Shown here in pieces: positions 231 to 7,669 of a DNA stretch of 62,411 nucleotides. The stretch comes from a virus: positions 1 to 62,411 of IMG/VR virus record IMGVR_UViG_3300024239_000003, one strand, 5' to 3'. The notes under the pieces are model-generated. The model did no database searches. It was not told the origin of the DNA and saw only the letters and a list, made by a program, of their open reading frames with translations. Numbering within the stretch: position 1 is the first letter of the stretch; each line of letters starts with the position of its first letter. The position numbers and the translations under genes are program-made.

Positions 231-365
231 TCATAAGAAGTAGAAACCCGACGAACGGTAGTATTTAAATTTGCAAATCTGTATCGGGCTGGCAGATACT
301 TCGCTCCACCAGCTCACCTGCTGGACCAGTACAGCCTGGAAAGACGGGCGGACAGCCGGAGAGAC

Positions 366-424
366 GGCCCGATCACCTCCCACGGCTCCTGGCGGAAAAC
401 GGGAGGCTGCATCGGAAAGAGGGC
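366..424 (+). ncRNA. Hairpin module X1 (GGCCCGATCACCTCCC...GGGAGGCTGCATCGGAAAGAGGGC)
   Basis: Helix CCGAT(369-373)/ATCGG(411-415) stacked on CCTCCC(376-381)/GGGAGG(401-406). The flanks are conserved with X2. Confidence 0.4.
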
Positions 425-828
425 GGCCCGTGCAAAAAGCTGAGCAGGGCGCACGAGCAATGCGAACGGCCGGACGCAGTGCGCCATAGCTGTCAGGTTC
501 CCTCTTTCCAATGCAGAACATGGCGAAAGCCGGAAGTCTGAAAGCCAGCCACCCATGAGGTGCTTTCTGCGGTCCCCAATGCTGGATAGGGCCGCCCCCA
601 AGGGTCACGGGGAGAGTGTTGCGGAACGCCGGTCCAACAAGCAGACCTTAAACCCAGGCGTGACGGCTCGGAGAGACGAGCACTGAACAATGCAGCACCC
701 GCCGTTCGGGCATGAGCAGCAGCGCGGGAGCTTCACGAGTGGCACGACACGATCCCGTTGGTCTCATGCGGATGCGGGTGGAAACAGCGCCAGACCATGG
801 CGATACCCTGGCAAGCCGGTGGAAGTCC

Positions 829-884
829 GGCCCGATCACCTCGCCATCCCCTCGGGTAAGCTGGCGAGGCTGCATCGGAGAGGG
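829..884 (+). ncRNA. Hairpin module X2 (GGCCCGATCACCTCGCCA...TGGCGAGGCTGCATCGGAGAGGGC)
   Basis: Same flanks and outer helix as X1 (CCGAT 832-836/ATCGG 874-878). The inner helix is CCTCGCCA/TGGCGAGG, with a C:G to G:C swap relative to X1. It abuts tRNA-like element 1. Confidence 0.4.
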
Positions 885-985
885 CAATGGGTAGCTCAGC
901 GCGGTAGAGCAGCGAGCGCAAGCGGTCATGAACGCGAACGCTCATCCCCCCATGCAGGTCGCGGGTTCGACCCCCGCCTCATTGC
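885..985 (+). ncRNA. tRNA-like element 1 (34-nt anticodon-loop region instead of 7)
   Basis: Acceptor CAATGGG/CTCATTG, U8-A9, D arm GCTC-AGCGCGGTA-GAGC, variable loop AGGTC, T arm GCGGG-TTCGACC-CCCGC. Between GCGAG(912-916) and CATGC(951-955) lie 34 nt that can fold into an extended hairpin with loop GTCATGAA. Confidence 0.55.
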
Positions 986-1003
986 CTTCCCCGATGCAGA
1001 TGT

Positions 1004-1178
1004 ACCCCACTCGTCCAGTTGGTCAGGACACCATGAACCGGAGCGCCGAGGATCGCCGCCGACCTTGCACAGCGGCGGAAGGATGCGGAGCGAAGGGTAG
1101 TGTCAGGATGTTGCGTAAGTGCTGCGCAATTGAATGCCGCGAGCCGTGGAGACCGTGGTTCGATCCCACGGTGGGGCG
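1004..1178 (+). ncRNA. tRNA-like element 2 (109-nt insertion where the anticodon loop should be)
   Basis: Acceptor ACCCCAC/GTGGGGC, D arm GTCC-AGTTGGTCA-GGAC, anticodon stem CCATG(1031-35)/CGTGG(1145-49), T arm CGTGG-TTCGATC-CCACG. Bases 1036-1144 replace the 7-nt loop and contain hairpins plus AAGGATG and CAGGATG. Confidence 0.5.
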
Positions 1179-1383
1179 CCTAATCCCCGTCAACTCACTC
1201 CGGGGGCCGGCTCTGAGGCGAAGGAAGCGCCAAGGAGTAACGACGTGGAATTGCCCGCCATCGGCGCAAGGGCATGCTGGCGGGTAAGCCGCCCTTGAAA
1301 TTCTAGAGGTTGACGCCGGCAATCATGGCCAGAGGTCGAGGGCCGGCGCCTGACTTATCAGTGATCCAGCTCACAATGGGCGA

Positions 1384-5334: not shown

Positions 5335-7669
5335 CGCCGACCACATGCAGGGCCCGGACATCGCCGCCGCGCGCGTCAAGAAAGACGACGCATGGTCGCG
5401 CAACGCCAACGACAACCCGGCGCCGAAAGGGAAGAAGGCGAACCAGCTCGATAGCGAGCGCATGAAGCGCTTCCACTGCGAAATCCTGGGCATCTACGAG
5501 CAGGAGCTGGACCGTCAGGCCGAGAACCGCGCTCAGATGGCGGTGGACGAAGACTTCTACGACAACATCCAGTGGACGCCCGAGGACGCCCAGGTCCTGC
5601 GCGACCGTGGCCAGGAGCCGCTGGTCTACAACGTCATCACCCAGGCGCTGAACTGGGTGATCGGCACCGAGAAGCGCGGGCGCTCCGACTTCCGCGTGCT
5701 ACCGCGCCGCAAGGAGTCCGGCCGGCAGGCCCGCCGCAAGACCCAGTTGCTCAAGTACCTGGGCGACGTGAACCGCACACCGTTCCACCGCTCGCGCGCC
5801 TTCGAGGATTGCGTGAAGGTCGGCGTCGGCTGGCTGGAAGACGGCGTGCAGGACGACGGCGACGAAGAGCCCGTCTACTCGCGCTACGAGTCCTGGCGCA
5901 ACATGCTGTGGGACAGCGCCTCGACCGAGAAGGACCTGAGCGACTGCCGCTATGTGTTCCGCTCCAAGTGGGTGGACCTCGACGTGGCCGAAGCCATGTT
6001 CCCGAAGCGCATCGGCATGCTGCGCACCTCCGCCCGCGACACCGACAGCTACGGCATCGACACCCAGGGCGATGAGGCGATGGACTCGGCCGAGATCGAG
6101 CTGCAAGACTACAGCAGCTCCCGGTCGAACCTGCGCGAGTACCAGCGCAACCGCGTGCGCCTGATCGAGGGCTGGATACGCCGGCCCGTCACCGTCAAGC
6201 AGATGTACGGCGGCGAGTTCAAGGGCGAGGTCTACGACAAGTACAGCCCAGGCCACCGCGCCGCCATCGAGGCCGGCGAGTCCGTGGTCGTGGACAAGAT
6301 CATGATGCGGATGCACGTCTGCATCTTCACCTCGTCGGGCATCCTGTACTACGGCGAGAGCCCATACCGGCACAACCGCTTCCCGTTCACGCCCATCTGG
6401 TGCTACCGGCGCGGCCGCGACGGGCTGCCCTACGGCATGATCCGGGGCATGCGCGACATCCAGTACGACATCAACAAGCGCGCAGCGAAGGCCCTGCACA
6501 TCCTGAGCACCAACAAGGTGATCATGGACGAGGGCGCCGTCGATGACCTCGACGAGTTCAAGGAAGAGGTCGCCCGGCCCGACGCGGTGATCGTCAAGAA
6601 GTCCGGCAAGGAGATCGTGCTGAACGCCGAGCGCGAGCTGGCCGCCGCCCACCTCGAAATGATGGGCCGCTCGATCAACATGATCCAAACGCTGTCGGGC
6701 GTGACCGACGAGCTGCTGGGCCGCACCACGAACGCCACGTCCGGCAAGGCCATCGGTCTCCGCCAGGAACAAGGCAGCATGGCGACCGCCGGCATCTTCG
6801 ACAACCTGCGCTTCGCCACGCAAATCCAGGGCGAGAAGCAGCTTTCCCTCGTCGAGCAGTTCTTCAGCGAGGAAAAGCAGTTCCGCATCACCAACATGCG
6901 CGGCACGCCCGAGTACATCGTCATCAACGACGGCTTGCCGGAGAACGACATCACCCGGACCAAGGCTGACTTCGTGATCAGCGAGTCCGACTGGCGCGCC
7001 ACGATCCGCCAGAACCAAGCCGAGGAGCTGCTGGCGATGCTCGCCCAGCTCGCGCCGGTGGCGCCGCAGCTCGCCCTGGTGATGATCGACCTGATCGTCG
7101 AGGAGATGGACATCGGCAACCGCGAGGAGCTGGTGAAGCGCATCCGCCAAGTCACCGGCATGCGCGACCCGGACGCCGAGGAGCCGACGCCCGAGGAAAT
7201 CCAGCAGGAGCAGGCGAAGCAGGCCCAGGCCGAAATGCAGCAGCGCGCCACCATGGCCGACATCGCCAAGAAGGAGGCGGACGCGCAGAAGGCAGCAGCC
7301 GACGCGCAGAAGTCTACCGCCGACGCCCAGCGGATCGCCGTGCAGGCGCAGCAGATCGCCAGCCAGCTCGCCGGCCAGAACGTGGACACCCAGCGCAAGG
7401 CGCTCGAAACCGCCCTCGCCATGATCAGCGCGCCCCAGGTTGTCCCAATCGCCGATACCGTCCTGCACGAGGCTGGCTTCCAGTCGCGCACCGAGCAGGA
7501 GACAATCGCCCAGCAGCAGGCCGCCGCCGAGCAGCAGGCGATGGTCGAGGCCCAGGCACAGCAGCAGGCCGCCCAAGAGCAAGCAGCCCAGGAGCAGGCC
7601 GCACAGCAGCAACAGGCACAGCAGGAACAGCCGCCGGCTGATCCCGCGCAGCAGCAACCACCCATGTAA
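5327..7669 (+). CDS. Portal protein
   Basis: 780 aa immediately after terL. ATG 5327 overlaps the upstream stop. Size and position are typical of a portal. The C-terminal tail is Q/A-rich. Confidence 0.85.
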   Translation: MFDADHMQGPDIAAARVKKDDAWSRNANDNPAPKGKKANQLDSERMKRFHCEILGIYEQELDRQAENRAQMAVDEDFYDNIQWTPEDAQVLRDRGQEPLVYNVITQALNWVIGTEKRGRSDFRVLPRRKESGRQARRKTQLLKYLGDVNRTPFHRSRAFEDCVKVGVGWLEDGVQDDGDEEPVYSRYESWRNMLWDSASTEKDLSDCRYVFRSKWVDLDVAEAMFPKRIGMLRTSARDTDSYGIDTQGDEAMDSAEIELQDYSSSRSNLREYQRNRVRLIEGWIRRPVTVKQMYGGEFKGEVYDKYSPGHRAAIEAGESVVVDKIMMRMHVCIFTSSGILYYGESPYRHNRFPFTPIWCYRRGRDGLPYGMIRGMRDIQYDINKRAAKALHILSTNKVIMDEGAVDDLDEFKEEVARPDAVIVKKSGKEIVLNAERELAAAHLEMMGRSINMIQTLSGVTDELLGRTTNATSGKAIGLRQEQGSMATAGIFDNLRFATQIQGEKQLSLVEQFFSEEKQFRITNMRGTPEYIVINDGLPENDITRTKADFVISESDWRATIRQNQAEELLAMLAQLAPVAPQLALVMIDLIVEEMDIGNREELVKRIRQVTGMRDPDAEEPTPEEIQQEQAKQAQAEMQQRATMADIAKKEADAQKAAADAQKSTADAQRIAVQAQQIASQLAGQNVDTQRKALETALAMISAPQVVPIADTVLHEAGFQSRTEQETIAQQQAAAEQQAMVEAQAQQQAAQEQAAQEQAAQQQQAQQEQPPADPAQQQPPM

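Follow-up and report, generated by a model that had tools for sequence, protein, structure and literature searches.

The stretch of DNA analysed here (hereafter, the window) comprises the 62,411 nucleotides (nt) of virus record IMGVR_UViG_3300024239_000003, and our subject within it is a transfer RNA (tRNA)-shaped element on the + strand at positions 1004-1178, here called element 2, in which a 109-nt insert takes the place of the anticodon loop. Region 250-1450 of the window was 98.5% identical in three blocks (blastn) to Pseudomonas phage Itty13 (MW460249; Ittyvirus, 61.8 kb, host P. aeruginosa, from sewage), which is considered temperate because an integrase is present, and on this comparison the window can be regarded as a near-copy of that phage.

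Element 2 sits in a stretch of ~1.2 kb (~152-1383), bounded on the left by a leftward gene starting at 151 and on the right by a leftward open reading frame (ORF; 1384-1683), to the right of which lies the small terminase gene (terS, 1773-2531). None of the six ORFs lying over the array described below or overlapping the ~1.2-kb stretch matched a Pfam or PHROG family, and ARAGORN at default settings returned no canonical tRNA and no transfer-messenger RNA (tmRNA) anywhere in the window. The stretch holds a non-coding array of ~0.9 kb (~300-1180), with element 2 at its 3' end. A putative sigma-70-type promoter, read from the sequence and absent from the listing of a consensus scan, precedes the array on the + strand (271-300; TTGCAA at 271-276, an 18-nt spacer and GATACT at 295-300). 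Then follow, on the same strand, a paired structure that we call a clamp module (module A, 369-516), a domain shared with two P. putida phages (693-827), a second clamp module (module B, 832-999) whose cargo is another tRNA-like element, element 1 (883-990), and the linker AUGU (1000-1003), which leads from the closing word of module B into element 2. The AUGU junction is also found in Itty13, though the module before it differs, and a possible RNase P site would have U1003 as its -1 base. The flanks of the array are ~99% identical between the two phages, yet whole modules differ: window positions 679-866 are swapped for 28 nt in Itty13 (locus L001, 1929-1956), and an extra 260-nt clamp module stands ahead of element 2 in Itty13 only (L001, 2088-2348). 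We take the array to be a recombination hotspot.

Element 2 combines a complete tRNA-like body with a 109-nt insert

Direct reading of the sequence and ARAGORN in its intron mode both delimited element 2, and the stems, the A1-C72 mismatch, the 109-nt gap and the insert hairpins named in a preliminary description of this DNA were all located where it had placed them. The 5' half of the body (1004-1035) consists of an acceptor strand (1004-1010), U8-C9, the D arm (1013-1029), A26 and an anticodon-stem strand (1031-1035), and the 3' half (1145-1181) of the second anticodon-stem strand (1145-1149), the variable loop, the T arm (1154-1170), the second acceptor strand (1171-1177), G1178 and C-C-U. 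The 7-base-pair (bp) acceptor stem pairs ACCCCAC with GTGGGGC, with a mismatch between A1004 and C1177; the D arm reads GTCC (1013-1016), AGTTGGTCA, GGAC (1026-1029); the 5-bp anticodon stem, CCATG with CGTGG, includes one U.G pair; the variable loop has 4 nt (AGAC, 1150-1153); and the T arm is made of CGTGG (1154-1158), TTCGATC and CCACG (1166-1170). At the 3' end, the discriminator G1178 (G73) is followed by CCU, so that C74 and C75 are encoded, with U in place of A at position 76. The positions that support the tertiary fold of a tRNA are complete (U8, A14, G15:C48, G18G19, A21, G53:C61, T54-T55-C56 and A58), and the body thus has the arms, spacing and tertiary nucleotides of a standard cloverleaf.

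With introns allowed, ARAGORN reported exactly two elements in the 62 kb, at 885-986 and 1004-1180: two adjacent cloverleaves on the same strand, in a stretch without recognisable coding sequence. A lone intron-mode hit is weak evidence, and 40 dinucleotide shuffles of the window gave 16 such hits (0.4 each), five of them with an intron of ≤150 nt (0.125 each). When the insert was swapped for a generic 7-nt loop, the body was detected up to 110% of the ARAGORN threshold, as compared with 115-120% for genuine phage tRNAs; it is because of the 109-nt insert that default ARAGORN and Rfam are blank on element 2.

The insert (1036-1144) contains two local hairpins and three AGGAU words. Hairpin I has the core TCGCCGC (1053-1059) paired with GCGGCGG (1072-1078), and hairpin II pairs TTGCG (1111-1115) with CGCAA (1125-1129) and can be extended to 7 bp (1111-1117/1123-1129). 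Folding of the insert, a check proposed in the preliminary description, recovered both hairpins, but the energy of the insert alone was no better than that of shuffles (z = +0.64), and outside the two hairpins the fold was not robust, with different predictions for the window and for Itty13. The repeated words that had been noticed in the insert are real, GGAGCG occurring twice (at 1040 and 1087) and AGGAT three times (at 1049, 1080 and 1105). The AGGAT count is far beyond chance: only 0.04% of 109-nt segments of this genome, and 2 of 20000 shuffles, contained at least three. In the predicted fold a symmetric internal loop places two of the three AGGAU words face to face, and they may do no more there than form G.U and G.A pairs. 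These words could be protein-binding sites, Shine-Dalgarno-like sites, or just a symmetric non-canonical internal loop.

Element 2 is not an intron-bearing tRNA gene and matches no Rfam family

The preliminary description saw a tRNA disrupted by an insertion that might be an intron or a ribozyme, which would make element 2 a functional gene whose insert is removed, by self-splicing or by proteins, to yield a decoding tRNA. Group I introns are known in the anticodon loops of bacterial tRNAs, and ARAGORN does call a tRNA here, with a 102-nt intron at 32/33 and the loop CGCGAGC. We consider this reading very unlikely. The insert opens with AA and closes with CGCGAGC, and no excision register leaves a canonical loop or a 7-nt loop with U33, either in the window or in the Itty13 copy; the loop expected of a decoding tRNA (U33, purine 37) is therefore lacking, and element 2 would be unable to decode. 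Since no register gives a U33 loop, the insert must belong to the product, if that product is functional. A group I intron requires the P3-P9 catalytic core, ~200 nt or more, and the insert, at 109 nt, has about half the length of the smallest known examples. The search of the insert against intron and ribozyme models that had been called for was also negative: in Rfam (version 15; cut-off of 29 bits for the tRNA model RF00005) nothing reached the gathering score, nothing was found at E<=10 on 200-1500 bar weak sub-threshold YrlA and twister-sister matches, and on 995-1190 (a 196-nt query) there were zero intron, ribozyme or tRNA matches at E<=10. A group I intron was thus rejected on both length and model matches. 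Moreover, no RNA ligase or RtcB was present among the Pfam families listed for 45 Itty13 early-region proteins (25 of the 36 matched families are listed, and 40 of the 45 proteins were rescanned).

A tmRNA-like or Y-RNA-like (YrlA) molecule would have the same general architecture, that is, a tRNA-like domain with a long domain leading off from the anticodon-stem position, and the region gave two weak YrlA matches; this identity is nonetheless effectively refuted by tests of membership. The acceptor stem has C3-G70 and not the G3.U70 of tmRNA, and neither ARAGORN nor Rfam called a tmRNA. The YrlA matches scored 15.7 and 14.9 bits, far under the cut-off of 69, the better of them being no more than a fusion of the element 1 T arm with the element 2 D arm, and the strand order of element 2 is canonical, not circularly permuted. 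No Ro/TROVE (rsr) family was found among the Pfam results listed for the same 45 Itty13 proteins. The curated covariance models of GOLLD and ROOL matched neither the window nor any of 22 related loci. A remnant of an attP site was rejected as well: attP sites hold just the 3' part of a tRNA, and the integrase lies ~21 kb off. Thus, element 2 is real, and it is neither a conventional tRNA nor an intron-bearing tRNA gene.

Element 1 and the clamp modules of Pseudomonas phages

Element 1 has seven distinct homologues, in the window, Itty13, Jeremy, Shamal, Haboob and two IMG/VR prophages. In their alignment 48 pairs were found, with 98.4% of cells paired and compensatory change in 15 pairs, and none of 500 shuffles reached the observed values. 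A continuous helix runs from the clamp into an extended acceptor stem, which carries a D arm, an elongated anticodon arm of 34 nt (5 bp, a 3x3 loop, 3 bp and the 8-nt loop GUCAUGAA) and a T arm. The T stem shows a compensatory change from G-C to C-G between the window and Itty13, and the Rfam tRNA model scored above its cut-off on the Shamal (42 bits) and Jeremy (34.9 bits) copies. The octamer AUGCAGGU (956-963), in the variable region of element 1, is invariant in 7/7 homologues; it repeats the AUGCAG of the clamp closing word, so that the middle word CUGCAU has two possible partners.

The covariation of element 1 makes tRNA-like bodies with an altered anticodon arm a selected feature of the clamp RNA family. 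The earlier argument that two such neighbours bespeak design rather than accident is upheld indirectly, through this covariation in 7 phages and through the dedicated non-coding array, but the premise that both elements are disrupted in the same way is not: element 1 is buried in the clamp helix and enclosed by module B (832-999), whereas element 2 is free-standing, starts 4 nt past the closing word of that module, has no clamp of its own and carries a branched insert.

A clamp unit opens with CCGAUCACC, followed by a hairpin whose stem covaries, then GGCUGCAUCGG and an extension stem; a variable cargo comes next, and the unit closes with the complementary strand and CCRAUGCAG. In the clamp helix CUGCAUCGG pairs with CCGAUGCAG. 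Module A follows this order, with CCGATCACC at 369-377, the hairpin, GGCTGCATCGG at 405-415 and the closing word CCAATGCAG at 508-516, the 92 nt between the words consisting of an 8-bp extension stem and a cargo, to which a similar sequence exists in locus L022. Hairpin I of the element 2 insert was considered as a degenerate clamp 5' element (GGAUCGCC, hairpin, GGAAGGAUGCGG), a resemblance too weak to claim.

A pattern scan of IMG/VR returned 62 loci, ~45 of them real and distinct and the remainder chance matches in coding sequence. The clamp is thus present in ~45 distinct Pseudomonas-phage loci, both temperate and virulent (among L006-L067 and L266-L271), and named phages that carry it include phi1, phi2, MD8, zjk6, phiPSA1, Medea1, JBD88b, Marin, Shamal, Haboob, PACT201, Jeremy and Dolphis. 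When 45 clamps were aligned on anchors, the helices were 88.7% paired, a value inflated by the location of the closing word through complementarity, which leaves the diversity of pair types unaffected; 221 cells were changed on both sides, as compared with 26-63 in slid controls. In this alignment and in that of element 1, the G.U pairs fit an RNA of the + strand alone. In temperate phages the clamp lies between genes of the early rightward operon, before ParB-like and LuxR-type genes. The Jeremy and Dolphis copies come with a promoter-like site and a terminator of their own. Rfam 15 contains no clamp family, and literature searches by phage name, motif strings and topic retrieved no description of these elements; the clamp-module RNA family appears to be undescribed in Rfam and in the literature searched.

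In several relatives, clamps lie near real tRNAs. The leader of the window array recurs in L036, a 62-kb relative, as AAACCCGACGAACGGT...TTGCAA-N18-TTTACT...TTCGCTCCAC, ahead of tRNA-Asp and tRNA-Asn and then clamp modules; L053 has a promoter-like site, tRNA-Asp, two clamps with T-arm-like hairpins within their cargos and a terminator; L050 has a clamp followed by two tRNAs; and in Marin three T-arm-like hairpins lie past the clamp. The 16-mer AAACCCGACGAACGGT, directly upstream of the array promoter in the window (244-259), occurred exactly in 30 IMG/VR contigs from evidently unrelated phages, in many of them directly ahead of promoter-like sequences. Isolated T-arm-like hairpins (GGUUCGAnnCC loops), with no complete tRNA around them, recur in the cargos and spacers of clamps, for example in L053 (1778-1795, 1900-1915 and 2071-2088) and in L271 (2160-2178, 2308-2325 and 2345-2362). 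Clamp words were found within 4 kb upstream of terS relatives in 0/80 loci, two of which (L099 and L109) have ordinary tRNA arrays upstream of terS. In Itty13 a GIY-YIG nuclease gene (MW460249, 33009-33521) stands between the small and large terminase genes.

The domain at 693-827 (~135 nt) is shared with the P. putida phages Jeremy and Dolphis at 71-80% identity by blastn (L002, 2001-2135; L005, 2001-2135) and is not found in Itty13. It ends in a hairpin with a UGGAAGU loop just before the clamp, and in Jeremy and Dolphis it is located between a promoter-like site of its own and an intrinsic terminator. A twister-sister ribozyme at 782-868 was rejected: the match had 21.1 bits against a cut-off of 34, the conserved 3' segment is partly absent, and the hairpin differs in other clamps.

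We also observed a second module type, with the order GCAGAUG, hairpin GCGCAGGCUGAUGCGC, cargo, hairpin GCCGGAGAUCAGCGCCGGC and CAUCUGC, in L036 (~5685-5850), L002 (2305-2425), L017, L031, L056 and L270 (2020-2110), either standing alone after a clamp or nested within one. The complementarity of its two hairpin loops, GCUGAU and AUCAGC, hints at a kissing interaction. In the window this module is represented only by its 5' word GCAGAUG (996-1002), directly before element 2.

Other features of the clamp words concern their possible partners. The invariant CCGAU of the 5' word (369-377 and 832-840) could pair with AUCGG (411-415 and 874-878) in competition with the closing word; the C of AUCGG faces a G in 24/45 closing words but would always face one in the 5' word, and the competition may amount to a folding switch or a pseudoknot. 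The conserved GAUCACCU(CC) of the clamp (GAUCACCUCC at window 371-380) equals the 3' terminal sequence of 16S ribosomal RNA, GGCUGGAUCACCUCCUUA, and the middle word likewise starts with GGCUG (405-409); this likeness could be mimicry or chance. In Dolphis (L005, ~2126-2146), CCGATCACC is directly followed by CCGATTGCAG and then by a terminator, which looks like an 'empty' clamp devoid of hairpin, middle word and cargo.

Element 2 was found in two closely related phages only

Itty13 is the sole other site at which element 2 was found, with a copy 3 substitutions apart, and it alone was recovered both by blastn against 50,697 phage records and by blastn and nhmmer over 67 loci. IMG/VR contained no exact match to 20-22-mers taken from the D arm or from the T arm and acceptor. 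A 17-mer of the D arm had 87 matches in 185,579 species genomes, approximately the number expected by chance; those inspected were all within apparent coding sequence, and 0/80 scanned with ARAGORN hold a tRNA. A 20-mer of the insert had one unrelated AT-rich match in a metagenome collection. A covariance model of element 2, applied to 76 related loci (0.72 Mb), gave no convincing insert homologue; run with filters off on 9 loci, it also matched tRNA-like bodies of the element 1 type at 20-25 bits. A pair of candidates obtained with the default filter (L019, 2610-2776, 24 bits; L038, 3651-3817, 18 bits) was rejected as chance, both being without D and T arms and the latter lying within the 3' end of a 287-amino-acid ORF. 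The preliminary description had pointed to relatives with an intact tRNA here and no insert as the telling comparison; no such canonical counterpart was found in any collection searched.

In Itty13, C-G replaces the anticodon-stem U.G pair at 1034; position 1037 has G in place of A, a change that keeps the pairing with U1098 in the fold predicted for the window, although the Itty13 prediction differs there; and position 1063, in a hairpin loop, differs. All three differences are compatible with the fold, which is weak evidence.

The reading of element 2 that we favour, at about even odds, is that of a non-coding RNA on a tRNA chassis, excised by tRNA-processing enzymes with the insert retained. 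Its observed basis is a cloverleaf set in non-coding, modular surroundings, together with a sister element of conserved structure. Several observations weigh against it. The folding energy of 1004-1178 is no better than that of shuffles (z = +0.32), the A1/C72 mismatch and CCU in place of CCA are imperfections, and a consensus scan listed no terminator downstream of element 2. Divergence from Itty13 is 3/178 within element 2 versus ~4/630 in the flank, and two near-identical copies yield neither covariation in the insert nor a signal of purifying selection. As an antisense RNA the insert has no evident target in the phage genome, the longest complementarity (12-13 nt) being equal to that of shuffled inserts. 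Because element 2 rests on two near-identical sequences, our confidence in a function is moderate.

Several of these points also suit the main rival, a decaying pseudo-tRNA, in which a former tRNA gene of the tRNA/non-coding RNA operon was hit by an insertion or by recombination with array material and is now non-functional, its good appearance being due only to the recency of the event; the cause would be the module shuffling that also separates this phage from Itty13. Presence in this phage and Itty13 only, conservation no greater than that of the flanks, the imperfect acceptor and 3' end and the absence of a thermodynamic signal would all be expected of such a relic, as would the high mosaicism of the array, with whole modules swapped even between these two phages, and the GCAGATG before element 2, which lacks its 3' partner CATCTGC and looks like a recombination scar. 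Against this, the tertiary positions of the body are all intact, the three Itty13 substitutions all keep the fold, structural selection clearly acts on the sister element, whose anticodon arm is altered in an analogous way, and other arrays repeatedly carry T-arm and tRNA-like pieces as deliberate cargo. We regard decay as unlikely, while keeping it as the explanation with which the tRNA-chassis reading has chiefly to contend.

A proposed model for the origin and role of the element 2 RNA

On the tRNA-chassis reading, element 2 would be a tRNA-derived, non-decoding RNA gene whose intact L-shaped body permanently carries the 109-nt two-hairpin domain and keeps near-canonical ends (U(-1), G73, C74 and C75). 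It would form the last unit of a polycistronic non-coding phage transcript that starts near 300 and contains clamp-enclosed structured modules. Host tRNA-maturation enzymes would recognise the body, RNase P cutting at U1003/A1004 and the 3' end being trimmed and then repaired by the CCA-adding enzyme; these cuts would release a discrete RNA of ~175 nt and also set the 3' end of the upstream module. The tRNA fold would shield the displayed insert from nucleases, and the insert would be the effector part. That the RNA is transcribed and processed, keeps its insert and has a function is inferred; for the release steps the grounds are known tRNA maturation, engineered tRNA scaffolds, RNAC and RNAD of phage T4 and the tRNAs within GOLLD, and release by RNase P and 3' trimming, as for a tRNA, seems the most economical reading.

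One conceivable role is that of a decoy or sponge, a functional refinement of the tRNA-chassis reading and not an alternative anatomy, in which the body titrates a host factor that recognises the bodies or ends of tRNAs (for example, a tRNA-targeting defence nuclease or toxin) or the insert titrates a GGA-binding protein of the CsrA/RsmA family or the anti-Shine-Dalgarno sequence. The binding core of CsrA/RsmA is A(N)GGA, and the three AGGAU words are far above chance, although the pair that face each other in the internal loop may just form G.U and G.A pairs. The promoter is host-type in look, as for early expression, and faces away from the early genes, and close relatives carry very different cargos, a pattern resembling that of counter-defence hotspots. 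It is known that phages can use their tRNAs against defences that target tRNA (bioRxiv 10.1101/2023.03.15.532788). However, no partner protein is encoded nearby: Itty13 encodes a 128-amino-acid protein with a Phage_ProQ_C_like domain (MW460249, 53316-53702; 31.7 bits), but its relatives are not found in clamp-bearing phages. As it stands, we think a decoy improbable.

The family context is more interesting than element 2 alone. We propose, tentatively and with less conviction than the tRNA-chassis reading itself, that window 300-1180 and the ~45 Pseudomonas-phage loci belong to an undescribed modular family of non-coding RNAs with interchangeable cargos and tRNA co-transcription, a rapidly shuffled toolkit of, for example, decoys that act against tRNA-directed or RNA-directed defences of the host. 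In such a family, the clamp and a second, nested clamp (with the complementary loops GGCUGAU and GAUCAGC) might present interchangeable structured cargos; these may include tRNA-like L-shapes and T-arm hairpins, and element 2 would possibly be the inverse arrangement, a tRNA chassis that displays a cargo. The hypervariable cargos of close relatives suggest a role in phage-host conflict. Modular structured RNAs would then be widespread and unannotated in Pseudomonas phages, some of which are considered for therapy; GenBank records leave the clamp regions blank or label them 'hypothetical protein', and the clamp words offer a simple handle for finding and testing these RNAs.

Comparison with known systems

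Like tRNA genes with group I introns, element 2 has extra sequence between the strands of its anticodon stem, but its insert, at 109 nt, has no intron core and leaves no U33 after excision. YrlA RNAs likewise consist of a tRNA-like module (T arm, D arm and acceptor-like stem) joined through the anticodon-stem position to a long helix; they are, however, circularly permuted and partnered with Rsr, while the order of element 2 is canonical.

Engineered tRNA scaffolds stabilise RNA placed at the anticodon stem, tmRNA and mascRNA are natural tRNA-like RNAs, and in the MALAT1/mascRNA pair the RNase P cut also sets the 3' end of the upstream RNA. By analogy, element 2 may use a tRNA body as a processing handle and stabiliser, with extra RNA at the anticodon arm. 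The scaffolds differ from it in being artificial and mascRNA in having no insert, while tmRNA, unlike element 2, contains G3.U70, pseudoknots and a tag reading frame and is devoid of a D stem.

In phage T4, RNAC and RNAD mature together with the tRNAs. They are small RNAs of unknown role (species 1 and 2) encoded in the tRNA region of that phage (PMC3014915, PMC9697503). The likeness is that of small RNAs from phage tRNA regions, the homologous operon of L036 containing real tRNAs; in contrast to RNAC and RNAD, element 2 has a full cloverleaf with a 109-nt branched insert, and host and phage type differ, with no sequence relationship expected. GOLLD and ROOL are ornate non-coding RNAs of large size that phages and prophages encode, frequently close to tRNA islands, and tRNAs are sometimes found within the GOLLD linker (PMC12286853, PMC5737381). 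The array described here has different conserved words, a modular clamp architecture and no Rfam match, but it resembles them in being phage-borne, ~0.9 kb long and composed in part of tRNA-like units. If made and processed as proposed, element 2 would be nature's equivalent of the engineered tRNA scaffold, through which a phage uses the tRNA fold as a handle for processing and stability to display another RNA domain.

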